In this document: positions 111 to 48,294 of the stretch, piece by piece
How the letters are laid out: each line of letters starts with the position of its first letter
Position numbering within the stretch: position 1 is the first letter of the stretch
Origin: a virus
Taxonomy: Duplodnaviria; Caudoviricetes
DNA length: 48,844 bases
IMG/VR virus record: IMGVR_UViG_3300044806_000237
Location: 1-48,844 of that record
Reading direction: 5' to 3' (one strand)
The notes under the pieces: generated by a model
Databases searched by the model: none
What the model saw: the letters and a program-made list of their open reading frames with translations, nothing else
What the model was told of the DNA's origin: nothing
Made by a program: the position numbers and the translations under genes

Positions 111-3100
111 TCAGCAAATTCCAGCCAATCTCATATACTTGTCAACAATCAGCCCAACAACGGCCGCCCGCGAAAATGGAGTGTAGTCCACATCGCCAAT
201 TTGACCGTGAACGGGTTGATAATCTTCATCATTTTCATCATCGCCGTTGCTGCTTTCCTCACCGGCCGAAAAGGAGGAGGCGTATCCTTGAATGACCAGC
301 CGTTTAGCCACCGATCGAACGAAATCTTCATCGCTGGCCGATGGCGGATCCTGTTTGCCTTTCTTCGAGAGATCCCACATTTTGGCAACCCATTCAGATT
401 CATCAGTTCCGGCGATTTCCGGGAACAGCCCAGCCCACTCACTGGCATTTTCATCCAAGTTTGTTGTCGAGTGATCTTTGTACGAATCTTCGTTGCGATT
501 GATTCGCCCAGCGTGCCATCCTAGTTTCGCGATATAATGCCGGGCTTCCTCCTGCCGCTGGTGAGCCGGAAGAACCATTTTCAGTTCATCCTGAACGGCA
601 TTTGATAAAGTTTCATGATCCAGATCGTGTTCGTTGGCGATGTCCGGAATGACGTTCTTTCTGGCCTGGCGTTCGGTTTGATCTTGGGATGATTCAGCTT
701 CGAGTTCTGAGGGGTTGAACGATGTTGCTTTCTGAATTTCCCTGACTTTCTTCGCTTCATCCTTTTTGGATTGCTTGTCAGCCAAAATCTGCTGAGTCAT
801 CGCCTGTTGAGTTTGCTCCCATGCCGCCCGTCGGTCAGGCCGCTGGCGATTGTCGCCCGTATCCACTTTTGAGGCTGCGATTTTCGCGAGGTGCTCTTGG
901 TAGAGTTGTTCGGGGGATTTCTCCGGTTCAGCTGGCTTGGCTGAATCAGTTGGTTCAATGGCCCGTTCTGGTGGTGAATAGTTGGTTTGCTCGCTGGCGG
1001 GTTTGTTGAGGTTGTCGGGATAATTGCGAGGGGATTCGCTGGAAGATTCGGCCGGAGAGGAGGCTTCCAGCGCGGACGATCCGCCAGATTGACCGCCAGA
1101 TTCCTCGCCGCCCTTTGGTGCAAACTCCCCGCCCTTGCTTTGTGGCGAGCCCGCTGGATGTCTCGGGTGATCGCCGTTGAATGATCCGCCGCCGGAAGCT
1201 CCATTGGAGTCCTGACGATTTTTTAACGGTCGAACCGCGCGATCCCCCTCCTTTCCGGCCGTCTCTTGCGGAGCAGAACTACCACCATTCACCGCATCAC
1301 CAACAACAGCATCAGCCGCAGTTTGCGCCGCCGATGGTGGAGCATTTTCAGCAGCTTTGGACCGCTGTTCATGTTTCGCGATGGCATTTTGAACGATTGA
1401 GTCGAAGGAGTTGTTCGCTGATTTCGCCCTTTCGCCTGCCGTTAGTGGCTGGACGGCCGAAGAGGAGGAGGCTTGATTGCCCTGCGCTGGCGGAATTCCA
1501 TGTGCCGCCATCGCTGATTGCATCCAAGCCGACATCGCCGCCGCAATTGCCATGTGAGCCACGGAACGCATTGGACCTCGGAAGGCTTTGTTGGCGAGGT
1601 ACATTGCACCAGCGCCGACGGCTGCGTGAATCAAAGGATGAGCGTATTTGTCAACCTGAACAGAATCAACCCCCTCACTTTCCGGCCGCACATACCTATC
1701 AATTACACCGTTCATCGCTTCATAAATGTGCAACCGAGAATATTTTTCCGCTCCCGGAGCTTCCGGCTTTTTCAAAATCACCAGCGAAGTATTCACGCCC
1801 GTCTGTCTTGGCGCGTCACTTCCAGCAAAAGAGGCTTCTGGCAATTCCTCAAACTCGCCGTGTTCGTCCACAAAATCAGCGAATGCCTTGCGTTTGTTTC
1901 TCCCGGCCTCTCGATACATTCGATCGCCACCTGGAACCACGGCGACCAATTTTCCGCCAGGTTTCAACAAACTGAAAGCATGTTGCACATGATCAATCGC
2001 CGCATCGTTTTCAAACGGTGGATTCATAACGATTCGATCGTATTCCCCTTTGTGTTGAAGGAAATCATCGTGCTCAACTTCATGACCTTTCATTTTTAGA
2101 AGATCCTGCAGAGCGTAGTGATGTTCGATTCCTTTCAGGGAAACAGAATCACCGTGTGCAGCTTTCACCGCGTCCATGATTCGACCTGAACCCGCTGAAG
2201 GCTCCAGAACGCTTTGACCGTCGCGAATGTCTGCATGTTCCATCAGCCTGTCAATTACTCGAGGAGGAGTAGGATAGAACCCTTCTGCTTTGTGCTCGCG
2301 GTGAATCTTCTTTTCAAGTTCCTTGACTGGATCTTTCTGGACGCTGCCATGACGCTTTGCCTGATGAGGAGCCAGTTCACGGAGTGCAGATCGCAATTCG
2401 TGATCCTCCTGGATACCCATTGCGTAAAGACGCTGGAAGTCGTCTTTTTCGCCAAACCCGCCCCAGTCATGTTTAACGCCTTTAGATTTTGCCCGGTTGG
2501 CGAAGTCGAACCATTCCTTTGACGAATTTTTGCTGAGTGTCAAATTCTCCTTTTCGTCGTTTGTGTGACGTTTGAAAAGTTTCTGCCACTTCGCCGATTC
2601 TTGTTTCAGGCCTGGCGTGTTCGCAGCTTGCTCAAGAAATCGCTGAACGTTCGCAGGATAGATGATCTGTCGAGGAATCTTTGCATGCGCAATTGAATCC
2701 GGATTCACTCCCGCCTGATATGTGTGTTCACGTTCGTCGTGTTTTGCTTTGCTTCGCCATTCTTCGCCGTACTTGTCCTGAAGTTTTTGTTCTTCGTGCT
2801 TTCGCTGAGCCTGCCGCCAGACTCGCTGGAGACTTTCCAGTTGAGTCAGAGCATTCATGCCGCGCAAGTGTTTCACCTCGCCGCCTGCCATCGCTTCAGA
2901 GATTGACCGCAAGCGAACAGCCTGATTCAAGTCGTGTTCAGCAGAAGCTCGAGCACTTGCCGCCATTCCAGCCCGTCGATTGGTGTTTTCCTTCCGTTCG
3001 GCCGAGTAGGAAGCCGACGCCCGTTCTTCCAGTCGTTCAGCATGGTCGGCCAATTTTTCGCCGATAGTCTTTTCGCGTTCTTCCTGTTTCTCGCCTAAGA

Positions 3101-5948
3101 TATCGGAGCGATCCACTTTCTCACCGGCCATAGCTTGCAGGAACCGATTCCGCTTGTCTTCGTCCGGGAAGTGGAAGCCGCCGGGAGTTCCTCCGAATTG
3201 CTTGTAGTACCAGCCGCCGAGCCGTTTTGCCGCCGTGTTCATTTTGTCGTATTCATCGCGCTCGACTCGGTTTTTTGGCGATGCCGTGAAAATATCCTGA
3301 CCGCGCTTTGAATGGAAATTTTTGGTAAGTTCAAACCCGCCATGATCGCCAGAAACTTTCGCTTCAACAACCGTCGGCTTCTTCACTTCATCCCGGCCAG
3401 TACGAGTCTTTTCTGACATCAGGTTGTCGTACGTTTCCTGTTGTTCTGTGGTGAGTTTTTCATAGCTGCCGACTTTCTTGATCGCCAGTTCAAAGTCTTT
3501 CAAAGTTTTCGGGTTCGCCGCCGCTTCTTCGTTAGCTTTGTTGGCAGCTGCATATTCAGCAATGTTCTTTGCTTCTTTCTCGACGTGAGCCGCCAAGGAT
3601 TCAGGAGTTTGCTTTGCAACGTGACCAGCAAGACGACGAACAGCAGCACCAGACATGCCGCCGTCTGATCGGATATCGTCAGACGAGTAGATATTGGAAA
3701 TTCCTTCGCCCACGTTAAATGCACGTTGCATCATTGCTGCATAGACAGATTCGGCGTTCTGGTTCTTTTTGTTCTCACCGCGGATTGCCTGCCAGTCACC
3801 GAGATTTCCCGCAATGTTCCGCAGCGTCTTCGCGTCGTATCGCTTCTGGAGATCGCCAACAAAGGCTTCTTTGTTCTCAGTGTAGAACTTATGGGCCTGT
3901 TGAAATTCTTCGAAGGAGAGTTCACCGGAGTCGATCTTGCGGCTGAGTTGAAGGAATGATTTGTAATCGCCGTGAGTTTCGGGATCGAAGGAGCCGGAAA
4001 ACTGTGATTCTGGATCGGCCGGAGAGGAGGGAGATTCCTCCGCTGGCTGTTCATCTTCGTCGCGATGCCATCGACCATCACGGAAGACAAGCCCTTCCGC
4101 GTTTGTGTCGCCGTCATTGGGGCCGTCATCCTGTTTCTTTACAGATTGCAAATGATCAGGAACCCTATCGGCATCAGTCCAGCCGCCTTCCGGTTCGTTC
4201 TTCTTATTCGAAGCCTTTACTGCCGCGCTGAGTGTCTTTTTTGGATCGACTTTCTTTTCGATAATTGCCGCAGGTTTTGGAGCATTCTCAGGAGCCAGTT
4301 TCGCGTCAATTTCTTCTGATGCCTGTTTGTGGGCTTCAGAATCAGACATTTGGATAGCACCGCTCTGAAGTTGATTCATCCTGTCTAGGATGGCACTTGC
4401 CCGCATTGAAGTGAGATCCTGATATTTTGCAGGATCATTGTGCCAGTCTTTCACCAATTTATGGTGAGCTTTCGCCATTTCAATGGCTTCGCGTTTTGTT
4501 GAAAACATTGCCTGACCTGAATTTCCATCGACAGTATCATAAGTCCATTGCCGACCAGATTTCCTGACAGACTTTTCAGGATTATAGTTTTCAATTTGCG
4601 AATCGGTTCGGCCGCGAAGTAGTCGCATTTTTCTTGCGTCTTCATTCTGTGCATCCAAAACCCGATTCTCCATCGTCTTCGGATTATTCAAATCCCCGGC
4701 ATCCGAATTTAACAGCAATTCCTGCCCCTTGAGATCCTTGGTGTTTTTGCCAGTGTCGAACAGTGCTCCCTGTTTTATGGCGGGATTTGGAGTGAGAGGT
4801 TCAGGAGTTTTTGCGGGGGAGGGTTGAGTGGTGGAATCGAGGGTGAATGATGGTTCTTCGTCTTCTTCGGCCGCAGTCTTAGGTTTCGCCACCCGCGCAA
4901 CGCCAGACAGCCAGCGATACTGGTTTACATTTCCAAACTCAGTTGAATTGCTGTAGTTCGTCTCTAAGAACTCTTTCGCCGCGTTCAAATCTTCCCGGCT
5001 GAACTTTCCATCAACTGCTTTTTGGAACGCATCGTTGCCGATCTGTGGAAACCCGTTTGAATCGAACTCGACCAAATGACCGTGCTCGCTACCGGTCGCC
5101 AGCATGGCAGCAATGACATTTCCGCCAGGGATCTTTCTCAATGCATCCTGAACGTTCTTTGTGCCCTGCTTGCCCATTGCAGGCTTTTTGACGCCGAGGG
5201 ATAATTGAAGTTGCTCAAATCGATGTCCAGGGCGAAGGTGAAGAACGCTATCAGTCAACGCTGAAATTGGATCAACATTATCGGCCGGAGAGGAAGGAGC
5301 TTCAGCCGCCACCGGAGCAACCACTGGTTCAACAACCTTGAAATCCTCCTCCTCATCATCCCCATCATCAACAAAAGTGAACCCCGGATTCAGTTCCTCA
5401 AACAGCTTCTGTTGCCGATTCTCCTTCCGTCCGCCAGAAATTTTCCCCATTTCCGCCAGCCCCTTTGGCTTCGGTTTACGCTCGCCGCCCCCTTCCTTCC
5501 CGGCCGATTCTTTTTCAATTTGCTCCTTCGTTTTCCCCATCAGCCCCTTTGGCCCCTTCATGATCCGGCCATCTTCACCGCTGATGAACACCCGAGCCCC
5601 TCGCATCGTCACCCATTTTCCAGCCTCATCGTCAACTTTCTTGCTGAACAATGGTTTTTGACGTTCTTCTGGTTTCTCAAAGAGTCCAAGTTGACCGGAC
5701 GCCGGTTTGTGTCGCCGAGCGTATTCGTCTTTATGAACAGCAGTTGACGAAGGGTATTCATGACCATTTTCGCAACGATCATTCCCACCAATTCGCCGCT
5801 CGCGAGTGACACCATCAGCCCCGCAAACTGGACACTGGCCATAGGGGGAATTCATGGAGCTTGAATATCGACCAACGATTGAATTGACGATATCGCGGAT
5901 GGCAAATTGATACTTCGAAGGAGAGGCAGGGGTAGAGGCTGAAGTCAT
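111..5948 (-). CDS. Large polyvalent/DarB-like protein (probably head-packaged) with an N6-adenine DNA methyltransferase domain
   Basis: 1945 aa. N-terminal Zn-ribbon (CPVCG...CENGH) and WVTMRGARVFI motif. MTase motifs GFYPTP, VLEPSAGSG and IVMNPPF at about 1770-2290. HPRHPAGSPQSKGGEF motif typical of phage head-associated proteins. Lies next to the portal gene. Confidence 0.75.
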   Translation of the reverse strand: MTSASTPASPSKYQFAIRDIVNSIVGRYSSSMNSPYGQCPVCGADGVTRERRIGGNDRCENGHEYPSSTAVHKDEYARRHKPASGQLGLFEKPEERQKPLFSKKVDDEAGKWVTMRGARVFISGEDGRIMKGPKGLMGKTKEQIEKESAGKEGGGERKPKPKGLAEMGKISGGRKENRQQKLFEELNPGFTFVDDGDDEEEDFKVVEPVVAPVAAEAPSSPADNVDPISALTDSVLHLRPGHRFEQLQLSLGVKKPAMGKQGTKNVQDALRKIPGGNVIAAMLATGSEHGHLVEFDSNGFPQIGNDAFQKAVDGKFSREDLNAAKEFLETNYSNSTEFGNVNQYRWLSGVARVAKPKTAAEEDEEPSFTLDSTTQPSPAKTPEPLTPNPAIKQGALFDTGKNTKDLKGQELLLNSDAGDLNNPKTMENRVLDAQNEDARKMRLLRGRTDSQIENYNPEKSVRKSGRQWTYDTVDGNSGQAMFSTKREAIEMAKAHHKLVKDWHNDPAKYQDLTSMRASAILDRMNQLQSGAIQMSDSEAHKQASEEIDAKLAPENAPKPAAIIEKKVDPKKTLSAAVKASNKKNEPEGGWTDADRVPDHLQSVKKQDDGPNDGDTNAEGLVFRDGRWHRDEDEQPAEESPSSPADPESQFSGSFDPETHGDYKSFLQLSRKIDSGELSFEEFQQAHKFYTENKEAFVGDLQKRYDAKTLRNIAGNLGDWQAIRGENKKNQNAESVYAAMMQRAFNVGEGISNIYSSDDIRSDGGMSGAAVRRLAGHVAKQTPESLAAHVEKEAKNIAEYAAANKANEEAAANPKTLKDFELAIKKVGSYEKLTTEQQETYDNLMSEKTRTGRDEVKKPTVVEAKVSGDHGGFELTKNFHSKRGQDIFTASPKNRVERDEYDKMNTAAKRLGGWYYKQFGGTPGGFHFPDEDKRNRFLQAMAGEKVDRSDILGEKQEEREKTIGEKLADHAERLEERASASYSAERKENTNRRAGMAASARASAEHDLNQAVRLRSISEAMAGGEVKHLRGMNALTQLESLQRVWRQAQRKHEEQKLQDKYGEEWRSKAKHDEREHTYQAGVNPDSIAHAKIPRQIIYPANVQRFLEQAANTPGLKQESAKWQKLFKRHTNDEKENLTLSKNSSKEWFDFANRAKSKGVKHDWGGFGEKDDFQRLYAMGIQEDHELRSALRELAPHQAKRHGSVQKDPVKELEKKIHREHKAEGFYPTPPRVIDRLMEHADIRDGQSVLEPSAGSGRIMDAVKAAHGDSVSLKGIEHHYALQDLLKMKGHEVEHDDFLQHKGEYDRIVMNPPFENDAAIDHVQHAFSLLKPGGKLVAVVPGGDRMYREAGRNKRKAFADFVDEHGEFEELPEASFAGSDAPRQTGVNTSLVILKKPEAPGAEKYSRLHIYEAMNGVIDRYVRPESEGVDSVQVDKYAHPLIHAAVGAGAMYLANKAFRGPMRSVAHMAIAAAMSAWMQSAMAAHGIPPAQGNQASSSSAVQPLTAGERAKSANNSFDSIVQNAIAKHEQRSKAAENAPPSAAQTAADAVVGDAVNGGSSAPQETAGKEGDRAVRPLKNRQDSNGASGGGSFNGDHPRHPAGSPQSKGGEFAPKGGEESGGQSGGSSALEASSPAESSSESPRNYPDNLNKPASEQTNYSPPERAIEPTDSAKPAEPEKSPEQLYQEHLAKIAASKVDTGDNRQRPDRRAAWEQTQQAMTQQILADKQSKKDEAKKVREIQKATSFNPSELEAESSQDQTERQARKNVIPDIANEHDLDHETLSNAVQDELKMVLPAHQRQEEARHYIAKLGWHAGRINRNEDSYKDHSTTNLDENASEWAGLFPEIAGTDESEWVAKMWDLSKKGKQDPPSASDEDFVRSVAKRLVIQGYASSFSAGEESSNGDDENDEDYQPVHGQIGDVDYTPFSRAAVVGLIVDKYMRLAGIC

Positions 5949-6011
5949 CGAAAACCACCTATTGAAAATTCAGATTGAAAAATGCAAATCACATGGATGT
6001 CACAAACGAAA

Positions 6012-8342
6012 TCAGCATTCAGTTTTGGCCAATGATTTTGCCCGCATCGGCCCACCATTAGCAACCCACTTCTTGAACAAATCAACCGTCATGCTCGCCG
6101 CTGGCCCGCACTTCCACCCGGCCGGATAGTTCGCCAGATACAACTTTCTAGCCTCTTTCCTATTCAAACACCCAACAACAACCTTGAATTCATCGAATTC
6201 GCCGTCCTGGTCAACTTGCTTGATGACCAGCACAAAATCAGAGTCCGGATGATTCCCAATGAACACATCAAGATTGTCGCCGTCGTTGGCTGAAGTTCGC
6301 CGGAAATAGCCGTAGTGACTTGCCATTGTTCGGGACCATTCACGGCCGGAGGATGGAGAGGTTTTCGTACGAACTGAACCTTTGGGATTCTCGATCGCAA
6401 TTTCCAAGCCCTTCCACGGGAAGATACCTTTGGCGTAGTTTCCGGCTTCGCGTTGGGCGGGAGTTGGTGAAGTGTGGGTTTCGCTGGCAGCTTCTGAGAG
6501 AAGGCGGGAGGAACGGCGTTGATACTGATCCTGATTGACGGCCGGAGAGGAAGGGGGCCCGGATTCTCCACCACCAGCCCCACCACCACCCTCACCAATC
6601 TTCCCCGCCACATGATCAATCACCCCATCTTTCAGCCCCCTCACCTCTCCGGCCGCCTTGACATGCTCATGAGCCGCGTCAATCTGATTGCCGAATCCCG
6701 TACCCGCCGGGAACTGCATACCGTTCGCCATTCCCGGAGCAGCACCAGCCGCAGCATTCCTCAAAATCTTCTCATTCGGATTGTCCAGACTCACACCAAT
6801 GGCTTCCGAAACATCTTTCTCCGGAATCCCGAGCCCCATTTCCCAAGCCGTCCGATACCCGTCCAATTTCTCTTTGACGTTATCGCTTTCCAATTCGTGC
6901 TTAAACTTGAATCTCCAACCCTCAGTTTCTGGCCAGTTGGCAAGCTGAATCGTTCGTACTAGTTCATGGGTTATTGTTTCCTGCAAATTATTGCTGTCAT
7001 ACATGACAATTTGCGCAAGCGAATCCTTCTGGAAGTCAGCAACCGAACTACCGAGACCAGTAGCATCCGCTTCCGTGCTTAACGTCTGGCCGATAATGTA
7101 TCGCTTGATTCGATGTCCAAAATACTTGTCCTGGATGTTCAGCAGCATATCCATCCCAGCGAAACCCGGCTCCACAATCCGCAAATCGTAAACCGCCGAA
7201 TCCATCCCTAACGGCTTTGGAAAGAAAATCTGATTCCTTCCAAATGCCATTCGGTTTTTCGCCGCTTCCATCACCGAGCGTTTAGCCGCTTCATCCCCGG
7301 ACGGGTATTCATAAATCTCAATGCCGCCCGCCGAGCGTTCCATGTACTCCATCAAGAAACCAAGGATTTCCTGCTTCAGAAACCATTCGTTGTAAATTCG
7401 ATCACGAATGCCAACCCCGTGAATTCGCCCGGCCTTGCGGGGATTCTGGTATTCAGCATCTTCAATCATGTGCTTGTGGCAGATGATCGTCCTGCGAACA
7501 TATGGAGGAATAAAAAGTGCCGCACCGGAATTGGTGTATTCAATGCTCTCTATTCCACGAATGCGGGAATCCTTTTTTATAATCGGAGAAACGCGAACAC
7601 CCATTTGACCAGGGAAAGCACCTGGAGGCATCTTTTCACCGTCATCATACCGAAAAACTACCTTATCCCCGTGGATATGCGTCCAACCTATTGAGTCAGC
7701 ATGTTCAGACTGAGGGTAGCAATACTGCTTTCCGTCAATCAATTCTTTTTTGTCATAAGTATGCTGGATGGCTGAACGTCCAATCCAGATTGCATCCATG
7801 AGACATCGGCGATACTCGGTAAACCGCCTAATTTCACCAATAATTTTTGTAAGTTCGGCCGCTACTGACTTTTGAGCCGGGCTTTTTGAGTTCCCGGGAA
7901 CAATCGACCAATCAAGAAGTGCCGTCATTCGCTGTCGAATTTCCAGACATTCCATGATGCCCAAATCTTTGCGCATCAGCAAGGCGTCATTCGGATTGGC
8001 TTCCAGCGATTCGTCGGAAGGAAGGTACGTTTTCGCCTGACTTCCAATCTTGCTGGCAAACGTCATCGCGTGCGGAACAGCATCCTGCCCAAAAAGCGGG
8101 GACGCGCCAAAAACTCCAGCCGCAGGATCTTTGTCTTTTTCCAGCCATTCATTCACGAACGACGCCACCCTATCCTTTTCGGCCGTGCTGGTTTTGCCGT
8201 AGCCATCAGGATTCAGGCGAAACGCGATCCCGCCGGGAGCGTCAAACACATGATCGGCGTTTTTATTCATCAATGCCGCTGTGCTGAATGATTCACCGCG
8301 ACCGTATTTTTGGCCGTTGCCGTTGTTGCTGCTGCCGTTCAT
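6012..8342 (-). CDS. Portal protein (DUF935/Mu gp29-like) fused to a C-terminal inorganic-pyrophosphatase-like (InPase) domain
   Basis: Portal-like segments CLEIRQRMTALLDWSIVP, IKRYIIGQTLST and LQETITHELVRTIQLANWP. C-terminal PTPAQREAGNYAKG..IAIENPKGSVR..HYGYF..DGDNLDVFIG..FDEFKV matches the InPase domain of polyvalent proteins. Start set at MNGSS (8342); the ORF extends to 8378. Confidence 0.75.
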   Translation of the reverse strand: MNGSSNNGNGQKYGRGESFSTAALMNKNADHVFDAPGGIAFRLNPDGYGKTSTAEKDRVASFVNEWLEKDKDPAAGVFGASPLFGQDAVPHAMTFASKIGSQAKTYLPSDESLEANPNDALLMRKDLGIMECLEIRQRMTALLDWSIVPGNSKSPAQKSVAAELTKIIGEIRRFTEYRRCLMDAIWIGRSAIQHTYDKKELIDGKQYCYPQSEHADSIGWTHIHGDKVVFRYDDGEKMPPGAFPGQMGVRVSPIIKKDSRIRGIESIEYTNSGAALFIPPYVRRTIICHKHMIEDAEYQNPRKAGRIHGVGIRDRIYNEWFLKQEILGFLMEYMERSAGGIEIYEYPSGDEAAKRSVMEAAKNRMAFGRNQIFFPKPLGMDSAVYDLRIVEPGFAGMDMLLNIQDKYFGHRIKRYIIGQTLSTEADATGLGSSVADFQKDSLAQIVMYDSNNLQETITHELVRTIQLANWPETEGWRFKFKHELESDNVKEKLDGYRTAWEMGLGIPEKDVSEAIGVSLDNPNEKILRNAAAGAAPGMANGMQFPAGTGFGNQIDAAHEHVKAAGEVRGLKDGVIDHVAGKIGEGGGGAGGGESGPPSSPAVNQDQYQRRSSRLLSEAASETHTSPTPAQREAGNYAKGIFPWKGLEIAIENPKGSVRTKTSPSSGREWSRTMASHYGYFRRTSANDGDNLDVFIGNHPDSDFVLVIKQVDQDGEFDEFKVVVGCLNRKEARKLYLANYPAGWKCGPAASMTVDLFKKWVANGGPMRAKSLAKTEC

Positions 8343-8449
8343 TCGAAATTCCCCGTCTTTGTGACATGCATTTAACATGCAGAAGAATATCGAACTTGAC
8401 AGCCAAGGAACAGAGGACTAGGGACTTGATTCAATAAATCTAGTTTCAG

Positions 8450-9151: not shown

Positions 9152-9169
9152 AAAGTTTCATCCACAAAT

Positions 9170-11286: not shown

Positions 11287-11297
11287 TATTGAAATGT

Positions 11298-30959: not shown

Positions 30960-33212
30960 TCAGTATTCATCCTGTTGATTGTTCTTATTCTTCTTCCCGC
31001 GACCATAGCGACCACCAAACGAAGTTTCCATACCATTTCCGGATAACAGATCCCGCCAATTTCCGTTTGACTTGGCAACATTTTGAGCCGCTTTCGAACT
31101 CGACCGAGCCGACTCAATCGTGAGCCCCAGCTGAGAATCATCAGAAAAAGTCAAATACCTCAGAGCATCACAGTTTTTTGCAATCAAGTCACATGAAAGC
31201 ATGAACTCACCGGCAGTCGTTGCAATACAACCTACGTCAACATGCAAATCGCCGACTTGCTTGAATTCACCATCTATCAATGCTCGATGTTTTTGAAAAT
31301 ATCCAGAAAAACACAAATTCCATACATCTTGCCATGTCCCATCAACGAAAAACTTATGATCAGGAGTGACCACAAAGCGATGGCTCGAACCTCTTTTTGA
31401 AACAACCCAAGCAATCGCATTTCTTTGAGTTACTGTCCATCCAGTTAAAACTTCGCAATTTCCAGCCCTGCACTGCAAAATGTCACCCGCCTTGATTTCC
31501 TCAATCGGAACAGACTTCCCCTCACGAACGACTAACGTTCCAGCAGCAAAACAGCAGTGATCATCAAACTTCAATGGTTCAGGTCTCGGATTCAACGGGT
31601 TATCCGTCCGTCCATCCGCCCCGTTACCTTTTACCCATCGGTATTTCTTCATTTCCCTGATCAAATTCACGCACGAATAATGCACGAACAACCGAGGCCG
31701 CTGAATCATCGATTCGGTGAACTCATTCCATTCCGGGATTGATCGCTTCAACAACCATTGCACATGCTCAATGCCCTCAGTCACAGCATTCCGAGCCATC
31801 GACATATTGAGATTCGGGATTTCCTCGCCCATCTGCTTTGTGATTCTGGCCAGCTGCTGCGCCAACCGGATATTGCCAGGACTCGCCGGGTCCGCGTATG
31901 TCGTTCCGTACCATGGCTGATTCGGCCAGGGATGTCGTTTGGTAATGTCAATCAGTTGGTCAACGGTCGTCTTCTCTTGATCTGTCGAATAAAGCTCATC
32001 ATAGATGAACCACTGATTCAAACGATTGCGAGCGCCCCACAAACACACAAAAGCATTCTGAGGACCGGCACCCCAGTCAATCGCCCGCCTATGACTGCAA
32101 TTCCCTGACAGAATCCAATCAAAGATTTCATCCCCGACAACGTGGACCGTCGGGTCAAAGGTCTTATAAATCACGCCCTCAAAGGCCGCAAATAATCCTT
32201 TGAGCCGCATATTCAAAGACTCTTTGGGAATCATGCCGAAGTATTCGTCAAACCACTCCTTCGAGACGTGACCGGCTTCCATCGCACATTCGGTGTTCGC
32301 GTGGAAAATCTCCCAATCGTCGGGCAGATACTTCAGGTTTGACCGAAGAGTGATCTTTTCAGGTTTCGCCTTTCCCTTGCTGTCAGTCTCAGGCTTTGGC
32401 TTTTTGCCGTTCTGAATCATTTCCTCGATGTCGCCGGACAAATCCGGATCAACCGGCGTATATTCGACCATCTTTGAGCCAGGCAGGTTGTATTCACGGC
32501 ACCCGCGCAAAACTTCAGTGAAGACGCCCCAAGGAAATTGCTCAACGAAAGCGAAGCCGCCAATAGACCGAGCCATCATCTGGTCAGCGCCTTGGCGCCA
32601 GCTTTTGAATTCTAATGACCAATTGCCGTTTGCGGTGTAGTGGTATTGCTCAGGAATGAGCTTGCGGAATAGCTCTCGATCGGCTTGGCAGGCAGTTGGA
32701 AGTAGTGGAATTCGATAAGGAAGTTGCTGTTTCGGTCGGTACCAGGAGACGCGATCCCAGTCAATGTCGTCGTCCAGGATATGCCCGTGACCGTACAATT
32801 TCTCCTTCCAACAAGTTTCCATCGACTGCTCATAGGAGCCGCCGATAACCCAAAATGGAGTATCAACGCGAGGAGCCGGAGTGTTCAAAACGAACTTGGC
32901 TACTTTGGCCATCGTCGTTTCTGTCGTTCCGGCCCCATTCCCCCCTAGGAGCCACACAACCCCTCTACTTAGGCAGTTATAAAACCCCGCCTGCTGATCA
33001 AATCTCTCAGGCTGGTCTGGACGTGGCTGCCATTTTAACTGAGCCGGGAGATCAATCCCAAATGCCGCTTCGGCGAGTTCAGCGAGTTCCGCGAGTTCAA
33101 ATGAGTCCGGAGGAGCGTTGAAGAGGCGGTCAAAGAATTCGTCATCGAGTTCCGGAGGCAATGGGGAATCGAGGACGGCCGAAGAGGAGGGGGGACCGGC
33201 GAGGGCGATCAT
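30960..33212 (-). CDS. terL: Terminase large subunit containing a mini-intein
   Basis: ATPase-like N-domain (deviant Walker A GGNGAGTT), RNase H nuclease motifs RAIDWG, YADPA, LIREMKKYRW and DHxxDALRY (split by the intein). Confidence 0.85.
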   Translation of the reverse strand: MIALAGPPSSSAVLDSPLPPELDDEFFDRLFNAPPDSFELAELAELAEAAFGIDLPAQLKWQPRPDQPERFDQQAGFYNCLSRGVVWLLGGNGAGTTETTMAKVAKFVLNTPAPRVDTPFWVIGGSYEQSMETCWKEKLYGHGHILDDDIDWDRVSWYRPKQQLPYRIPLLPTACQADRELFRKLIPEQYHYTANGNWSLEFKSWRQGADQMMARSIGGFAFVEQFPWGVFTEVLRGCREYNLPGSKMVEYTPVDPDLSGDIEEMIQNGKKPKPETDSKGKAKPEKITLRSNLKYLPDDWEIFHANTECAMEAGHVSKEWFDEYFGMIPKESLNMRLKGLFAAFEGVIYKTFDPTVHVVGDEIFDWILSGNCSHRRAIDWGAGPQNAFVCLWGARNRLNQWFIYDELYSTDQEKTTVDQLIDITKRHPWPNQPWYGTTYADPASPGNIRLAQQLARITKQMGEEIPNLNMSMARNAVTEGIEHVQWLLKRSIPEWNEFTESMIQRPRLFVHYSCVNLIREMKKYRWVKGNGADGRTDNPLNPRPEPLKFDDHCCFAAGTLVVREGKSVPIEEIKAGDILQCRAGNCEVLTGWTVTQRNAIAWVVSKRGSSHRFVVTPDHKFFVDGTWQDVWNLCFSGYFQKHRALIDGEFKQVGDLHVDVGCIATTAGEFMLSCDLIAKNCDALRYLTFSDDSQLGLTIESARSSSKAAQNVAKSNGNWRDLLSGNGMETSFGGRYGRGKKNKNNQQDEY
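31173..31553 (-). mobile_element. Mini-intein (127 aa, no homing endonuclease) in TerL
   Basis: Starts CFAAGTLV..VPIEEIKAGD, block B VTPDHKFF, ends LIAKN followed by +1 Cys; removal restores DDHCCDALRY. Confidence 0.85.
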
Positions 33213-33661
33213 TCAGCACCGTATTTGATGAGTGCTCGCCTGGTCCAGAATGCCATGTCGATTCTATCGAAAATTGACAATGGAGATTTAACAACAGGAA
33301 TCCCGTAAAGCGAATCGGTGAACATTGGTGAGAAACCAAGAATTTGATTCTCAACACGCCGATTCATCTTCTCAACCATCGCATCATTCACGACGCACAT
33401 ATACTTCGGCCGCTTGCGAATAGCTCCAATGTCCTCCCAGACGCTGCCAATGTCCTCTGGACCAAATGAGCAGAATTTCGACCACTCTGGAGCAACTTCG
33501 TAGTTGAGCCATTCGAGTTTCTTGATGGTCTTTTCCAACTCAGCAACGGAATACTTCACGGAGAAATTGAATTCCTTCATGGTGTAGCTGCAGTTGTCGG
33601 CCAATGTTCCAGCCGATTGTTCTTCTGGCCATTCAACCATCATCGTCGATCCCAAATGCAA
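33209..33661 (-). CDS. Hypothetical protein
   Basis: Stop overlaps the terL start (ATGA). Confidence 0.5.
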   Translation of the reverse strand: MHLGSTMMVEWPEEQSAGTLADNCSYTMKEFNFSVKYSVAELEKTIKKLEWLNYEVAPEWSKFCSFGPEDIGSVWEDIGAIRKRPKYMCVVNDAMVEKMNRRVENQILGFSPMFTDSLYGIPVVKSPLSIFDRIDMAFWTRRALIKYGAE

Positions 33662-38085: not shown

Positions 38086-38141
38086 AGCCAGCTTTCTGAG
38101 TTTATAGGTTTGAGGAACAGGACAACGACGATGGCAAAATA

Positions 38142-38447
38142 CTAAGAACCGCACACATTCTTAAAAATGTCGATTCCCAACAGTTCACACCGCGACAACG
38201 CGAACTCAAGAGCCATTCTGAATTCAGGCTTATCATTCTGTAGGAGTAACCATCGCCCCTCTTTCACGTTACTGACGACAGTCTTGATCATCGACGTGAA
38301 GTGATCGTCAGGCTTGCCGAACTTCGCTTCATCCGGCCACTGTGGCCACAGGCGATGCTGCCAGAATCCAAAAAACAACATCACCTCTGGAGGACTTCCA
38401 GACATAGTGACGTGTTGACCGTCGTGATTTGTGATAACGCGGATCAT
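38142..38447 (-). CDS. Hypothetical protein
   Basis: Co-oriented ORF. Confidence 0.45.
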   Translation of the reverse strand: MIRVITNHDGQHVTMSGSPPEVMLFFGFWQHRLWPQWPDEAKFGKPDDHFTSMIKTVVSNVKEGRWLLLQNDKPEFRMALEFALSRCELLGIDIFKNVCGS

Positions 38448-38490
38448 CTGAGAGCTTCCAGCCAGAGAATTTTAACTTCAGAAATAATAG

Positions 38491-38575
38491 CTCCAGGGGA
38501 AGGACTCGAACCTTCAATGTGTCCTGTTCGGAATTAACCTACTGAGGATGCGGTTGCCAGTTTCGCCACCCCGGA
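38491..38575 (-). tRNA. tRNA-like RNA with an aberrant, expanded anticodon arm (pseudo-tRNA, Asn-like)
   Basis: Acceptor TCCGGGG/CCCTGGA plus G, D-arm GCG-AAACTGGCAAC-CGC, T-arm GAAGG-TTCGAGT-CCTTC; anticodon arm 27 nt instead of 17; ends CTA, not CCA. Confidence 0.65.
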
Positions 38576-38582
38576 AAATAAC

Positions 38583-38774
38583 TCAACTCACCTGTTCCGT
38601 TTTCGCGATAGCACTCCGAATCGCCAACAACCCAGCAGCCGCCAGCCAACTCAAAATTTCCTGGCTCTGTTCAGGCGACAAATAGCCCATCGACTGCGCC
38701 GCCGCCGTCCCACCCATCGCCAAGGCCGTGATTATCGTTTTCTTGCCCTGAAGGAACTTCCAAACTTTCATCAT
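38583..38774 (-). CDS. Small two-TM holin-like protein
   Basis: MMKVWKFLQGKKTIITALAMGG...ILSWLAAAGLLAIRSAIAK; first gene of the late region. Confidence 0.55.
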   Translation of the reverse strand: MMKVWKFLQGKKTIITALAMGGTAAAQSMGYLSPEQSQEILSWLAAAGLLAIRSAIAKTEQVS

Positions 38775-39168
38775 TGCAACACCAGCCTTCAATCAGTCTT
38801 CAATCAACCTTGACCATGGAAACAAAAAGAGGCGACCGGCAACACACCGGCCGCCCTTTGCCCCATTCAACCAGAGAACCGCCGCAAATCATGCCAAGCG
38901 AATCGCAGATCGTCAACAGCATGTAGCGTGCATGTCACATAGTTTCACAAACTTCAGCCAAATGAATGTTGCATCATCGGGTTGAGCCGGGCCGCTCCAA
39001 GGCTTCGCAGGATCGTCGCAAACTACTGTACAAAATCAAAACCGTCGGAGCCTATTTCGTCCGAGGAAGAGGCTTCTCGGCGCGGAGTTTCGGCGACCGG
39101 ACAAATTTTAGAAATTTCCAAGCAAGATCCATGCCGGAATAAACTCCTACTGAACATATCCGCACTGA

Positions 39169-40106: not shown

Positions 40107-40157
40107 TCTTTGGTGTTCGTTTTACTGAAGACTGATCTTTCTTGGGAGTTGATTGAA

Positions 40158-41201: not shown

Positions 41202-41278
41202 GCTTCCGTAGTCCATGTGACGTGCATGTTCCATTCAACAATTTTTGAATTTCAAATTCCAAACCAGAAAGCCCAAAA

Positions 41279-42607: not shown

Positions 42608-42617
42608 GAAATTGGAA

Positions 42618-43421
42618 TCATTCCTGACCATCACCATTCTCAACCATATCCCGATCCAACTTCTGCAACTCCAACTTCTTCCTGATCAAATCCAAAATCT
42701 TGTGCTTTCGCACATCACCGCCGGCCGGAACTTCCAGAACAACTCTGGTGTTTTGAGCCGGTTTCATTTTTTCAGCCCACTTCATTTCCGCATCCAGAAG
42801 GCTTTGAGCCAAAGCGAGATACGCAGGATTGCCTGTCGATTGAGTAATCTTGCGGCTTTTCAATCTCCCGGATGCATCGTAGGTACACTCAACTTTCGCC
42901 TGTTGCGAGCGAATCCAACCGAGATTTGCACAGGCTGCCAGATAACTGAGCTTTAATGGCAGGTAACGAGCCGCCCCCGAATACCAGCTGGCAATCGGGG
43001 AAGTCGACAGCGATTCAGGGTTGCCGCGAGAAGCTTCATCAGCAAATGGAATGAATTCGTCATTCGTCCGGATCAAAGATTCCGCGATTCGCTCCAGTTG
43101 TTCAGTAATTCGCGGATCTTCCATCGATCGGAAGTCTGCAGGAATTTTGAAATCGCTGATGTCTGGAGTTGGTTGCTTGTCGGGTTCTGGTTTCTTTTTT
43201 TTTCTTTTGTTCTTGTACTTTACCTTTGAACTGGCCTTTTCTGACTCCGATTTTCGTGGTCGACCGCGCCCCCTCTTTTCGGCCGACTGCGATTGCTGTT
43301 TCTTCTGTGGCTGAGGCTGAGGCTGAGGCTTCTCAACACCATAAACGCCAGCAGGACGGCCAACAGATTTCCCGTTGTTCCGTCCTGCGTGTTCGTTCTG
43401 GTTTTCGTTTGTGCCTGTCAT
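42618..43421 (-). CDS. Basic DNA-binding protein with an AT-hook; possible terminase small subunit
   Basis: KRGRGRPRK AT-hook, Lys-rich N-terminus, helical C-terminus; TerS assignment is speculative. Confidence 0.4.
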   Translation of the reverse strand: MTGTNENQNEHAGRNNGKSVGRPAGVYGVEKPQPQPQPQKKQQSQSAEKRGRGRPRKSESEKASSKVKYKNKRKKKKPEPDKQPTPDISDFKIPADFRSMEDPRITEQLERIAESLIRTNDEFIPFADEASRGNPESLSTSPIASWYSGAARYLPLKLSYLAACANLGWIRSQQAKVECTYDASGRLKSRKITQSTGNPAYLALAQSLLDAEMKWAEKMKPAQNTRVVLEVPAGGDVRKHKILDLIRKKLELQKLDRDMVENGDGQE

Positions 43422-43455
43422 CAGCCGCCAGCTTCAGTTCCAGAGTCGATCAGAA

Positions 43456-44714
43456 TCAGGATTCAGATTCTGATTCATTTGCTGGCTGAATGGTAGCATT
43501 TTTTCCAGATCGCATAGCCGCCAACTTTCGGCCGACCGCTTGACCCGTGATCGTGACGCCGGCAGTCTTCAGAGCCTGCATAGCTCGAGGAGTGTCTATA
43601 TCCGGGTTTGCTTCGAAGAGTTTTGCTAACAGATCATCTGGTGAGTCTGATGAATTTGAATCTTCGTCGTCGATGTCTGGAGTGTCAATTGGACCTGAGT
43701 CTGGTTGATTTTCATCGGCCGGAGAGGAGAGGATTTTCGGCGCGGATGGATCTCCATCCTCGTTACCACCATCATCAATCATCAACTCACCAGAACCACC
43801 GGAGGTGTCATCATCGCCGATCATCGACTGGCGGTAAACCTGATCGTCGGCCGCCCCCTCTACTTGTGCCTTTTGGTACAAATCCTCTTTCGATAGTGCC
43901 TGGATCTTCAAACGGTCGGCGACCGCTCGAACTTCTTCTTCAGAGACTCTCTTCACGCGGGCAATCACGGAAACAAACTGCCCTTGCCGGAGTAGCTCTT
44001 CGATGGTCGCAGGATCTTCCGGGCTGTCCTGAATCTTGCCCTGGGATTTCAGGTGCTGGCGGATTCGCTGGAGAGCCGAACCGGAGCTTTCAACGATGTC
44101 CTTCCGCTGCTTTTCGTTTTCATCTTCCGGATGCCAGTCAGCAGGCACAACAGAGCCGGGCTCACGAGCTTCCTTTTCGATTAGGAATTGATCCACGTTG
44201 CCATTGGTGAAGAACGGACCCTTCCAGATATGGTCCTCGCCAGTTTTGTCGAGCCAGCCGTAATCACGGGCAATATAGAGCCACTTCCGGCCGCTTTCGT
44301 TTTTGTACTCTTCGAGGAGTTCTTTCACCGGACGAAGAAAGCGATGTTTGGACACACTGGAGTTCTTCAACTGAGATTCCAAGGACTCAAAGAGCGACCA
44401 AAACGTAGGACCGGGAATGCCTGTCTTCTGGTCAAGTCCCTCGCCGCTGGCGATAATGTGGCCCCAAGCATCGGCAAGCCGGACGCACGCGGTATGGATC
44501 TTGATGCATGATGCTGGAACGTCACCGTTGAGAGCGATGTTCAAGGCCGCTGAAATGGCGTTTTCGAGCCAATCAGGGAAGAACCGATCTTCGGAGAGTG
44601 ACCATTTTCGTTTTGCGTCCACCATGGTTTTCAGGGCGGATTTGATTTCTGTTTCGCGGTTTGGTTGCTGCGATGCAACGGCCGAAGAGGGAGGGGATAG
44701 TGTGCCAGCTGACA
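43456..44714 (-). CDS. Hypothetical protein
   Basis: About 420 aa with HTH-like helical segments and an acidic linker. Confidence 0.55.
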
Positions 44715-44901
44715 TTGATTTTGCTCCAGAGTTCTGAAATGGGAAAAATCCACCTGGCAATAGACAGAGCAGTGATGCCCGTTGCTGGTGGTCTATGACT
44801 AATGGTAATGGAGGGCCGCTTCAGACCGGCACTTATGTTGGTCACTGCCGCAAAGATTTAGAGTCTCAGCGAAGCCGTTTAATTCCTCGATCGCTCACCA
44901 G

Positions 44902-44922
44902 AAGTAGCACATAAGTAGCACA
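44902..44922. repeat. Tandem 10-bp direct repeat AAGTAGCACA (arm-type integrase site candidate)
   Basis: 44902-44911 and 44913-44922, about 50 bp from the tRNA fragment. Confidence 0.55.
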
Positions 44923-44969
44923 GAACAACGCAAATTGCAATAACACTGCCAAAACACGCCAAACCCACT

Positions 44970-45014
44970 GACTCTTAATCCGTAGGTCGAAGGTTCGAGT
45001 CCTTCTGGGAGCAC
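44970..45014 (+). other. attP-like core: 3' half of tRNA-Lys(CTT)
   Basis: GA-CTCTTAA-TCCGT AGGTC GAAGG-TTCGAGT-CCTTC TGGGAGCAC; the 5' half (acceptor and D-arm) is absent. Confidence 0.75.
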
Positions 45015-45018
45015 ATCG

Positions 45019-45056
45019 AAAAGACTGGTAAATCGCAAGGTTTGCCAGTCTTTTTT
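45019..45056 (+). terminator. Intrinsic terminator after the tRNA 3' fragment
   Basis: AAAAGACTGGTAAATC-GCAA-GGTTTGCCAGTCTTTTTT hairpin. Confidence 0.8.
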
Positions 45057-45268
45057 CATGCGCGGACCGGTTTTCTGGCTGTTTCCGCTATGTGATATCA
45101 TGCAACAGTTTATTTCTTAAATGTTACTTTTGCAACGCAAAATCTTTTGGTGAAACAACTTGTATCCATTGCGTTTTTATTTTGTAATTTCTATGTTACA
45201 TGCAGTTGACAACCATCGCACAAGATGCGTACACTTTCATTCATGTTGATTTAAGGAGATAACGATAG

Positions 45269-45553
45269 ATGAAGACAAGTCAGACGGGTAATCCAAGTGG
45301 CAAAAAGGAAAAGTGCCTGGTCCCTGACTGCCAAGGAATCGGGACTCGGCGAGGTCTCTGCAGTTCATGCAGAAATTCTGCTGACCGAGAGATTGAATCC
45401 GGACGGACGACCGAGGTTGAATTGATTGAGCAGGGCTTGCTGAACCCAAAGGGTAAAAAGGCCAGGCTCAGGATTGAACTGGAAGCACGACGAAAAACAA
45501 AGAAGCGAGGTAAAAATGTCGAAGACTTCGAACTCGACGATGATGATAGCTGA
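45269..45553 (+). CDS. Small Zn-finger protein
   Basis: CLVPDC...RRGLCSSC; GGAG-type RBS upstream. Confidence 0.55.
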   Translation: MKTSQTGNPSGKKEKCLVPDCQGIGTRRGLCSSCRNSADREIESGRTTEVELIEQGLLNPKGKKARLRIELEARRKTKKRGKNVEDFELDDDDS

Positions 45554-45755
45554 ATCTGAACGTGAATCTGAATTACTGACTCCACGGGAAGTTGCCGAGA
45601 AATTGAAGGTCACAGTTCAGTGCTTGAATCAATGGCGATCGGCGAGGAAGGGACCGCCATTCAAGAAGGTTGTTGGCAAGATCAGATACAAGTCTGATGA
45701 GCTTCAACAGTGGATTGATGGTCAGGCTGTTGAGACTGATCTGAAGTTGGTTTGA
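45540..45755 (+). CDS. Excisionase-like/MerR-type HTH DNA-binding protein
   Basis: LLTPREVAEKLKVTVQCLNQWRSARKGPPFKKV..IRY..ELQQWI is an HTH_17 signature. Confidence 0.8.
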   Translation: MMIAESERESELLTPREVAEKLKVTVQCLNQWRSARKGPPFKKVVGKIRYKSDELQQWIDGQAVETDLKLV

Positions 45756-45794
45756 TGGTGTTGATTCTGTTTCTCTACTGGCTGGAGTTGAATA

Positions 45795-46055
45795 ATGGTC
45801 ATCTGGAAGTTCACGTTAGAACTCACCGACATTCAGAAATTGACAATTACTGAAGGCGCTCAAATTCTGAGCGTAGCAAATCAAAATGGAAATCTATGCC
45901 TTTGGGTGATGCTTGTTCCGCATCTTCGGAAGGTGAAGCGAACAATCGAAATCATTGGAACTGGAAATCCAATTGAGGAAGGGATTGAAAGGAAGTTCAT
46001 CGGAACTGCCGTTATTAATCCATTTGTGTGGCATGTGTTCGAGCGTCTGGAATAG
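45795..46055 (+). CDS. Conserved small phage protein
   Basis: IWKF.L..GAQILSV..Q..LCLW..IIGTG..FIGT..FVWHVFE pattern common in phages. Confidence 0.65.
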   Translation: MVIWKFTLELTDIQKLTITEGAQILSVANQNGNLCLWVMLVPHLRKVKRTIEIIGTGNPIEEGIERKFIGTAVINPFVWHVFERLE

Positions 46056-46136
46056 CCAGACATCGATTTGATGGTGTTTATTCTGTTGATTCTGTTTCTA
46101 TTCATGTGATTTTTGAAACCTGAAAGGCTGGCTGCC

Positions 46137-47141
46137 ATGCCCTTAAACGAACTGGGTGACTTTGATCTGGATGACGCGATTGATTTTGATGCTTTTGATA
46201 TTGATCTTGAGGCTGTTGCTACCACGGTTCGGCCGGAGGCGGTAATCACTGCCAAGGCCAATATCAATGAATTGGCAAGAGAAGTTGCACAGGCAACAGC
46301 AAATCCCTCCCTCTCTTCGGCCGGTGGAAGTGTCCTCTACTGCGATATCGAAACAATCCCGGACTACGACCGCCAACACTTGTTCGGACTTCCGCCGCTC
46401 CCAGTTGTTCCGGCTGAACAGTCAGTTGGTGAACTTCTCGCCCCTGCTGAATTCTTGTCTCAGACAGCAAAGGAAATTGAGACTTGGCTGAACAAGAACA
46501 ATCCTTGCGAAGAGTGGCTACAGCAATGCGAAGCCTGTGAACGTGCCACGTCCGGGAGAAGTGGCAACCGGAAAGCAATCTTCGATCTGTTGCTGAAGGC
46601 GCGATCTGGAAAGGATGCAGTTGGTGACGCCCTGCGGAGCAATCGGAAGAAAATGTCAGTTACTCCGGAAATGGCTCAGATTGTGGCCATGGGGTTGGCA
46701 ATTGATGATGCTCAGGTTGTACCAATGGTGGTAGGAATTGACGGTTTTACGGAGAAAAGCATTCTCGAAACATTCTGGTCTGCAGCAAAACGAGCCCAGC
46801 ACATCTGCGGATTCAACATCGCAGGATTCGACCTGCCGACGATCTTCTTCCGCTCCATCATGTTGGGAATTCCAGCCAGCCGCATGATTGACTTGAGTCC
46901 ATACAAAGATCAGGTCATCGACTTGATGGTTTGCCGATTCGGACGAACAGGCGAACGCGGAATGGGCCTAAAAAACGTCTGCAAACTTTGTGACATACAA
47001 GTTCCATGCGAAGGCGTTGACGGTTCTCAGGTTGAAGAATTGCACCGCACAAATCCTGTGCTGGTCGGCCAGTACGTTGCCAGTGACGTGATTGTCACAA
47101 GGAAGTTGCATCGACTTTACTCAGGATTTTTCTGCGTTTAG
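46137..47141 (+). CDS. 3'-5' exonuclease (DEDD, PolB-exo-like)
   Basis: ExoI YCDIET, ExoII GFNIAGFDLP, ExoIII YVASDV. Confidence 0.8.
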   Translation: MPLNELGDFDLDDAIDFDAFDIDLEAVATTVRPEAVITAKANINELAREVAQATANPSLSSAGGSVLYCDIETIPDYDRQHLFGLPPLPVVPAEQSVGELLAPAEFLSQTAKEIETWLNKNNPCEEWLQQCEACERATSGRSGNRKAIFDLLLKARSGKDAVGDALRSNRKKMSVTPEMAQIVAMGLAIDDAQVVPMVVGIDGFTEKSILETFWSAAKRAQHICGFNIAGFDLPTIFFRSIMLGIPASRMIDLSPYKDQVIDLMVCRFGRTGERGMGLKNVCKLCDIQVPCEGVDGSQVEELHRTNPVLVGQYVASDVIVTRKLHRLYSGFFCV

Positions 47142-47235
47142 CCTGTAGATCACTGCAGATAGTGAAAACCCTCTCTTTCCGGCCGTTGTGATTGGCCGTT
47201 ACAAATTTTTCCAATTTTTCTGAAAGTTTTTAGTC

Positions 47236-48294
47236 ATGTCCACAGCACTCACAACCTCGCCAGCTTCGGAAGATCCACGGAAGCAAAATGGAAATTCCCT
47301 CAAACCCGGCTTCCAGTCAGTTGAGGGATACAAGCTCGCCCTGAAGTTCTCTGAGGCGTTCGCATCGTCAACATTGGTCCCTATGGCCTACCGAGCTAAT
47401 CAGGCAAACTGCATGATTGCTATTTCGATGGCGAGCCGGATGAATGCTGATCCGCTTACCGTGATGCAGAATCTTCACATAATCCAAGGCAAGCCGAGTT
47501 TTTCGGCACAGTTCCTGGTTGCCAGTTGGAACGCCTGCGGACGATTTGGCCCAATCCGCTACCAGTGGACAGAAAAGCGGGATGGATGCCGAGCCATTTC
47601 GAAGGATCTTGAGACCGGCGAAGTGTTGATTGGCACTCAGATCACAATAGCAATGGCCAAGGCTGAAGGATGGTACGGTAAGCCTGGCAGCAAATGGCAG
47701 ACGATGCCGGAACAGATGCTGATGTATCGCGCCGGGACGTTTTTGGTCCGAGCGTATGCCGCTGAGATCGCATTGGGCATTCAGACGACCGAAGAGGCTG
47801 AGGACATTACCGGCATGACGGCCGTTGATGTCACGTCTGATGATCTGAAGAGGATTGAAGTTCCGGCACAACAGACCGGCGTTCAGGTTGTTGAGTCTTC
47901 GCCGGAATCTGGTGAAGTGGTTGTTGCGCCCGTTGTCCCTTCCTCTCCGGCCGAAAAGAAGGAAGTCGTTGCTGAGCTTGTCACCACAGCAGAAACCACA
48001 ACAACAGCCACCAGCACCCTCGACGCCAACGGCGAAGGCCCAGTTTGCCAAGAAACACTCGCCTTCCTTGGGGAACTGGTTAAAGAAATCAATCCACCAA
48101 GAGATATCTGGGTTGGCACATTGCAAAAACGATTCGGTGTAACATCCGCCAAGGAACTGAACGAGAATCAGGCTCAGTCAATCGTTAAGTGGGCGAAGTC
48201 AAAGGTTGAATCCATCCGGCTTACAAAGTGGTCGGCCGGAGAGGGAGAGAAACGCGAGGCGAGCCAAGAGGCCGCACCCTTTCAGACCACGTAG
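47236..48294 (+). CDS. RecT-like single-strand annealing protein
   Basis: NCMIAISMASRMNADPLTVMQNLHIIQGKPS...MAKAEGW..KPGSKWQTMPEQMLMYRA. Confidence 0.75.
   Translation: MSTALTTSPASEDPRKQNGNSLKPGFQSVEGYKLALKFSEAFASSTLVPMAYRANQANCMIAISMASRMNADPLTVMQNLHIIQGKPSFSAQFLVASWNACGRFGPIRYQWTEKRDGCRAISKDLETGEVLIGTQITIAMAKAEGWYGKPGSKWQTMPEQMLMYRAGTFLVRAYAAEIALGIQTTEEAEDITGMTAVDVTSDDLKRIEVPAQQTGVQVVESSPESGEVVVAPVVPSSPAEKKEVVAELVTTAETTTTATSTLDANGEGPVCQETLAFLGELVKEINPPRDIWVGTLQKRFGVTSAKELNENQAQSIVKWAKSKVESIRLTKWSAGEGEKREASQEAAPFQTT

Follow-up and report, generated by a model that had tools for sequence, protein, structure and literature searches.

The 48,844-nucleotide (48.8-kb) stretch analysed here, the tailed-phage record IMGVR_UViG_3300044806_000237, which is referred to as the window, carries about once per kb a DNA word composed of the palindrome CGGCCG and an adjoining purine tract. 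This word is a signal specific to one phage lineage and is kept by selection on the DNA itself; the pattern is that of purifying selection, with turnover of copies at a steady density. Since the word occurs about once per kb, is kept at silent positions and is absent from the sampled DNA of the likely host, it is likely to be a docking tag for a viral protein. The joint proposition that some protein binds the word and that this protein is phage-encoded is probable. The favoured reading, to which a probability of roughly 40% was assigned, is that the packaging cassette, through a protein with several predicted helix-turn-helix (HTH) units (multi-HTH protein) and/or the presumed small terminase (TerS), would read the scattered copies as a self-tag.

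Definition, enrichment and conservation of the word

A total of 73 CGGCCG hexamers was found in the window, corresponding to 146 oriented copies, and a site was defined as a hexamer with at least nine purines in the adjoining ten bases, on either side. As only 1.45% of all 10-mers pass this purine rule, about 2 sites were expected among the 146 oriented hexamers, whereas 47 were found, at 45 positions (Table 1), with two-sided sites at 263 and 47948. A preliminary description of this DNA, made by a model from the letters alone, had claimed about 43 copies; CGGCCG is indeed present at all 43 coordinates, and nine or more of the ten bases on the side given are purines, but 2999, 4868 and the second side of 263 had been missed. 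The consensus is approximately (T/A)CGGCCG-(G/A)AGAGGAGGGG, a one-directional word of about 18 bp. The core is almost strict, the tract being found beside a one-mismatch core in only 7 cases, while the register of the tract shifts relative to the core and uninterrupted purine runs peak at 11–13 bases (26 of the 47 sites).

The genes of the window (45.1 kb) contain 45 sites, against 1.43 ± 1.2 (maximum 5) in 200 synonymous-codon, protein-preserving shuffles and 0.5 in codon-order shuffles, a count far above the codon-preserving expectation against which the preliminary description had proposed to measure it. A matrix trained on a related viral contig (G001) alone recovered 33 window sites of at least 20 bits, compared with 0.1 in order-4 Markov controls. 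The present proteins offer 88 opportunities for the word by synonymous choice, and sites are present at 45 of them. The two remaining sites are intergenic. The word had been described as written in several reading frames, and all frames are indeed used, but unevenly, with 35 of the 45 genic sites in one frame and 6 and 4 in the others; the sites in the dominant frame encode S/P/A-rich linkers. The proposed bias of the pyrimidine tract towards the mRNA strand held in direction and was weak (28 of 45 window sites, p = 0.14); pooled with three relatives it amounted to 81 of 138 (p = 0.05, with genomes that are non-independent). The distances between sites (mean 1090 bases, coefficient of variation 0.87) fit a random process (Kolmogorov–Smirnov test against the exponential, p = 0.52), so that the earlier picture of sites tiled along the genome was overstated; the longest site-free stretches run to 4 kb in the window and to 9 kb in G001. 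No site was found in the divergent non-coding regions 38447–38982 and 44760–45269 of the window, and for only 1 of the 47 sites does an annotated start follow within 60 bases.

Five viral contigs whose capsid protein is 81–99% identical share the word at 0.4–1.0 per kb, in agreement with the earlier proposal that it should be sought in related phages: G001 has 69 sites in 66.4 kb, G002 9 in 22.7 kb, G003 15 in 20.6 kb, L001 8 in 7.7 kb and L004 5 in 7.3 kb. The window and G001 are 72% identical in nucleotides, and at fourfold-degenerate positions 45 of 50 in the core and 38 of 57 in the tract are kept between them, compared with 1414 of 3080 (46%) elsewhere, which bears out the earlier suggestion that selection acts on the nucleic acid and not on the peptide. 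In 22 orthologous gene pairs of these two phages, 27 of 39 sites are common; the other 12 are found in the window alone, and G001 has 11 of its own. Poorly conserved linkers are the preferred location; the capsid gene has no sites, and a 9.5-kb accessory block of G001 has only 2. Among orthologues of the multi-HTH protein, motif-type peptides were found in 25 of 25 at 53% identity or more, in 8 of 35 in the next tier and in 9 of 117 remote ones. Purifying selection with turnover at a steady density is the pattern of uptake sequences as described in PMC2817400. An origin of the sites as an inserted mobile repeat (REP, RPE or MITE type) is not supported, lost sites being aligned mostly as substitutions or in diverged linkers, with no gap of fixed length. 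No family was matched in an Rfam search of the window, and no tRNA gene was detected in a tRNA gene search.

It is most improbable that the word is a functionless by-product, whether of amino-acid or codon bias or of methylation or repair drive as proposed for HIP1. The concentration of sites in one frame and in S/P/A-rich linkers would suit such an origin, as would a relative (G465) enriched in its genes in a bare hexamer, CCCAGG (100 against 27), possibly through mutational drive. However, protein-preserving shuffles yield only 1.4 sites, the word occurs on both strands and in every frame, its silent positions are kept and a one-sided 12-base tract is not known as part of HIP-type palindromes.

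The likely host and the wider phage family

The host is likely a Planctomycetaceae-like bacterium, because an attP-like core of the window matches tRNA loci whose chromosomal neighbours have planctomycete homologues. A metagenomic scan for this tRNA-Lys core gave 15 loci: seven (L323–325, L329–332) carry a complete tRNA with 48 of 48 bases matched, two short ones share just the core, and the other six form part of a different tRNA cluster, with 36–39 bases matched. The genes flanking the tRNA on the seven loci are chromosomal, and the named homologues of their DAHP synthase are from Planctomycetota, Planctomyces, Planctomycetaceae and Fuerstiella, at 78–84%. In G001 an equivalent tRNA-Lys element (2 differences) is followed by an integrase, which the window does not have at that place; its segment 44967–45269 keeps the tRNA-Lys fragment, and the integrase and a neighbouring 137-aa gene of G001 are absent. 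The window phage is possibly a lytic deletion derivative. One candidate host contig (L330, 9998–16389) has a 6.3-kb island between two copies of the tRNA-Lys core, with a T5orf172-domain gene.

In the 75.7 kb of the seven candidate host loci no site was found, against about 70 expected at phage density, and the same DNA contains 23 CGGCCG, an ordinary frequency. Equal density in the host, which the preliminary description had named as grounds for abandoning a phage signal, is thus not seen in these contigs, and its suggestions of a mimic of a host nucleoid site or of a host Chi are weakened. A pattern search in two other classes of the same phylum gave at most 4 copies per genome (56 genomes) and at most 2 (401 genomes) of a strict 16-mer form of the word; the best DAHP synthase identity in 201 genomes was 57%, so those two classes are probably not that of the host, and the search was repeated in the class of G471, taken as the nearest to the host from its PurB matches, the closest at 66–71%. 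In the 79 genomes of that class, among which the host genus may not be included, the strict 16-mer occurred at most twice per genome, against 10 copies in the 48.8-kb window. A scan of GTDB (17 of 64 parts) with an 18-mer present in 5 window copies led to an estimate of about 490 stretches; the 120 matches examined were single, from different organisms, with 1–3 loose sites per locus, and 40 of these loci are only about 600 bp long. No host genome was recovered when tRNA, DNA and ECF sigma were used as queries, and the capsid protein was not found in the 56 genomes.

These results bear on the idea that the word is the site of a host protein recruited or titrated by the phage, or else a signal of the uptake, Chi or nucleoid type belonging to an unsampled host. 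Its frame bias, its poorly conserved positions and its scarcity in accessory genes resemble those of DNA uptake sequences (DUS) as presented in PMC2817400, and an analogous word was found in a non-sister phage locus, L306. The empty 75.7 kb around the matching tRNA, and the lack of any genome enriched for the word among the 56, 401 and 79 sampled or the 120 GTDB matches, nevertheless make this explanation quite unlikely.

The word is absent from the sister phage clades among the capsid-related loci examined, and none of 75 further capsid-related loci (37–49% identity) has more than 2 sites. The group L244–L260 has its own word, GCGTGACA (13 against 0.6 in G464, mainly on one strand). L306 (38% capsid identity) has a comparable two-part word, in which CGNCCAGG is joined to a purine tract, with 11 copies in 14.7 kb, 7 of them in genes against 0.09 in shuffles. 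In the L297 group (L297, L299, L301, L305), CCAGGG(A/T)GG with a partly conserved TTAC tail is dispersed on both strands at about 8–9 per 21 kb. The CCCAGG of G465 (L348–L350) is evenly spread on both strands with no flanking signal, and an approximately fourfold enrichment of this hexamer is seen there and in L281; G467 has no CCWGG in 62.6 kb. A de novo motif search, by an expectation-maximisation/k-mer method that weak words may escape, gave no comparable long word in G465–G469 and most other relatives. In a capsid tree (FastTree, built from loci selected by hand and without near-duplicates) the word-bearing groups are not sisters, and the window clade stands on a long branch.

Many loci of the family with about 52% GC have 0–1 CGGCCG in 10–60 kb, which suggests restriction pressure in related hosts on the very hexamer that the window clade accumulates. 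This scarcity, at 0–1 CGGCCG per locus, is shown by most members of the family with about 50–54% GC (L243–L268, L298, L303, L304, L306 and L311–L313). If the hexamer is a restriction target in related hosts, as these relatives suggest, a protein carried in the virion, for instance the DarB-like polyvalent methyltransferase (MTase) protein, could load at the copies or protect them and so shield injected DNA from host restriction, and the MTase domain of the 1945-aa protein of the window is 91% identical in G001. This explanation is unlikely: homologues of the MTase domain (46–48%) occur in L280, L291 and L300, all of which lack the word, the gain of target sites would be left unexplained, and CGGCCG is found at ordinary frequency in the candidate host (23 in 75.7 kb).

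Candidate readers and the packaging cassette

The gene content of the window (portal, large terminase, head-tail adaptor, major tail, exonuclease, RecT and an excisionase-like gene) is that of a tailed-phage fragment. The multi-HTH gene is found family-wide (237 representatives), heads the packaging cassette in relatives and adjoins the attP core in the window. In the model of its product, the C-terminal unit weakly resembles the HTHs of Fur, PAX and homeodomain proteins (Foldseek probability 0.85–0.89, E about 1–2), and a single-sequence model of the C-terminal part was confident for the last unit only. A fold search with the whole model gave no match at E 0.001 or better, and searches of Atlas, Pfam and PDB sequences gave no match, while VIA matched only the generic N-terminal bundle. 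In four relatives without the motif, the multi-HTH gene is followed by a TerS-like gene (basic tail, HTH, GNPA motif) and then by the large terminase gene (TerL), which in three of them was seen immediately after it. The TerS-like orthologue of three motif-bearing phages has no evident N-terminal HTH, by calls made partly by eye, and the multi-HTH/TerS pair of these phages stands apart from TerL. Judging from these two differences, the packaging module appears to have been altered at its DNA-recognition end on the same branch on which the word arose.

Coating and packaging were among the roles suggested in the preliminary description, and packaging or coating is the best reading of the present data, with candidate binders. 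A protein of the packaging cassette would pick out phage DNA through the scattered copies. No individual copy would be essential, selection holding the density and not the position; new copies would arise where flexible protein linkers tolerate them, and freshly acquired blocks would be without copies. A phage-only signal, free of position and orientation, suits the message "this DNA is mine" better than it suits regulation. More tentatively, the lineage may have swapped a single pac site for a DUS-like genome-wide self-tag of about 65 replaceable copies, overprinted on genes and read by a remodelled TerS/multi-HTH module. With such a distributed self-tag, packaging could start anywhere on phage DNA and not on the DNA of the host or of a competitor, and other branches of this planctomycete phage family would have evolved their own words.

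Several points weigh against this assignment to the packaging cassette. The multi-HTH gene also occurs in G466–G469, which are without the word, and having the gene is therefore not enough to account for the motif. The change in TerS and the motif fall on one long branch and amount to a single event, a weak correlation that is a lead rather than proof. The putative identity of TerS rests on synteny and on a 28% match over 92 aa (E 0.001–0.007) between the window and the motif-less relatives. The pac sites so far described are single loci. The similar word in the non-sister L306 could point to a shared host factor, and the host comparison covered 75.7 kb of contigs rather than a whole genome, and the GTDB scan 17 of 64 parts.

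Other candidate readers fared less well. The Dam-type MTase at 33640 has no orthologue in the word-bearing G001; the AT-hook core of the protein at 42618–43421, named in the preliminary description, is not kept in the G001 orthologue; and its proposal of a Chi-like site for the Exo/RecT pair is weakened by 75 of 79 distant RecT-related phage loci without a site.

Stoperator-type silencing, in which a monomeric multi-HTH repressor would bind prophage sites and block transcription, is unlikely. The lineage is temperate (attP core; integrase in G001), the multi-HTH gene lies beside attP and distant relatives have different words; the site is asymmetric and its density is similar to that of Cluster A stoperators, given as 20–30 per genome in PMC6550527. 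But the orientation is only 59–62% one way, 45 of the 47 sites lie within genes with none in the divergent non-coding regions, and in relatives the multi-HTH gene heads a terminase cassette.

The purine runs peaking at 11–13 bases and the position of the core 3' of a pyrimidine template would fit the geometry of a priming site, at which the phage primase-helicase, encoded in G001, would read the core on the template and copy the pyrimidine tract into an all-purine primer of about 12 nt, around once per Okazaki length. Recognition of an 8-nt site is described for the NrS-1 primase-polymerase in PMC8718748. This priming role is very unlikely, since G468 (primase domain 39% identical) and 12 primase-related loci (33–38%), whose distant enzymes could read other sites, have 0–1 sites and no comparable word, since no strand switch is seen (11 and 11 sites in the right arm of G001) and since neighbouring sites can be as far apart as 4 kb (window) or 9 kb (G001). 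In addition, primases of the DnaG type usually read triplets.

Some further features of these genomes were observed. The large terminase of the window has a Hint-like in-frame insertion of 393 bases (31161–31553), which is skipped in G001 and in another related contig. At 6012–8378 a Mu-type portal is fused to an InPase (PF18823) domain. A RecD2-like helicase is split into two genes in G001 (L237, 8740–12009) and likewise in G468, and tandem repeats were seen within a gene of G002 (L334, about 6500–7100) that is flanked by the presumed TerS and the large terminase.

Table 1. Sites of the word and features of the window mentioned in the text.
Feature	Position	Strand	Details
Sites with the tract to the right (28)	263..48250	+	CGGCCG starts: 263, 1049, 1454, 4016, 5282, 6343, 6539, 10741, 11927, 16365, 17387, 18441, 21646, 24263, 24347, 26825, 28205, 29666, 30549, 33176, 34922, 35420, 38007, 42060, 43716, 44679, 47948, 48233
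Sites with the purine tract on the - strand, pyrimidine tract left (19)	251..47953	-	CGGCCG starts: 263, 1256, 1683, 2999, 4868, 5501, 6650, 8180, 16046, 21027, 28665, 29780, 35276, 41008, 42248, 43280, 46318, 47180, 47948
Multi-HTH protein, 419 aa, candidate binder	43456..44715	-	From alignment and predicted structure; N-terminal helical bundle, predicted three-helix (HTH-like) units
Presumed TerS, candidate binder	42618..43421	-	From gene order and GNPAxL motif; basic N-terminal tail
attP-like core, 3' part of tRNA-Lys(CTT)	44967..45014	+	48/48 identical to complete tRNA genes on candidate host contigs
Large terminase with Hint-like insertion	30960..33212	-	One site (33176)
Polyvalent protein, 1945 aa, MTase domain, rival candidate reader	111..5948	-	11 sites

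Comparison with known systems

No description of the word or of a phage-only uptake-like signal was found in the literature listings searched. The stoperators of Cluster A mycobacteriophages (L5, Bxb1, TipsytheTRex) are likewise tens of asymmetric, clade-specific sites spread across a temperate phage genome, with a candidate monomeric protein of more than one HTH-like unit, here predicted. In PMC9283540, stoperators are described as pointing the same way as transcription and as located in promoters or in short gaps between genes. The number of sites found here is in keeping with them (47 in 48.8 kb; 69 in G001), whereas orientation and location are not: the sites are within genes, nearly free of orientation, absent from promoter-like regions and turning over, with a strict core and a loose purine tract, and the HTH gene belongs to a packaging cassette. 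The start-associated sequences (SAS) and extended SAS of actinobacteriophages also are a repeated asymmetric motif with a Shine-Dalgarno-like purine tract, and occupy ribosome-binding positions before start codons, as stated in PMC7302621; here, by contrast, 1 of 47 sites has a start within 60 bases downstream and most oppose the mRNA sense. The NrS-1 primase-polymerase is a phage enzyme with a site longer than a triplet, as a priming role would require, but the primase here is of a different class, and primase homology showed no association with the word.

The closest resemblance in behaviour is to the uptake signal sequences (USS) of Pasteurellaceae and the DUS of Neisseriaceae, which also occur about once per kb on both strands with a strong frame bias and a strict core with a looser flank, at poorly conserved protein positions, and are scarce in accessory genes. 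The difference is that the word was found in phage DNA but not in chromosomal DNA of the candidate host, which, as far as the present data go, excludes a host uptake signal, and no uptake receptor is in view; instead of the hundreds to thousands of chromosomal copies of DUS and USS, there are 0 sites in 75.7 kb and no more than 2 strict 16-mers in any of the 79 genomes. Dispersed self-signals over coding DNA are known from competent bacteria, and many-site binding in phages from stoperators; a phage-only signal that behaves like an uptake sequence fits neither. For this large and so far unstudied family of phages, whose hosts are likely planctomycetes, the word offers a well-delimited site open to testing, and clades with this word, with others or with none can be compared as natural contrasts. 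The pac sites of P22 and SPP1 are read by small terminases, and the proposal made here shares with them a sequence-specific choice of phage DNA for packaging, but a pac site is one locus per genome, in contrast to about 65 scattered, replaceable copies. The word may be a variant of genome-wide phage binding sites, and a distributed packaging signal, doubtful as it still is, would be new in kind. If the packaging cassette does read the word, this would be a new answer to how a phage discriminates its own DNA from that of its host.

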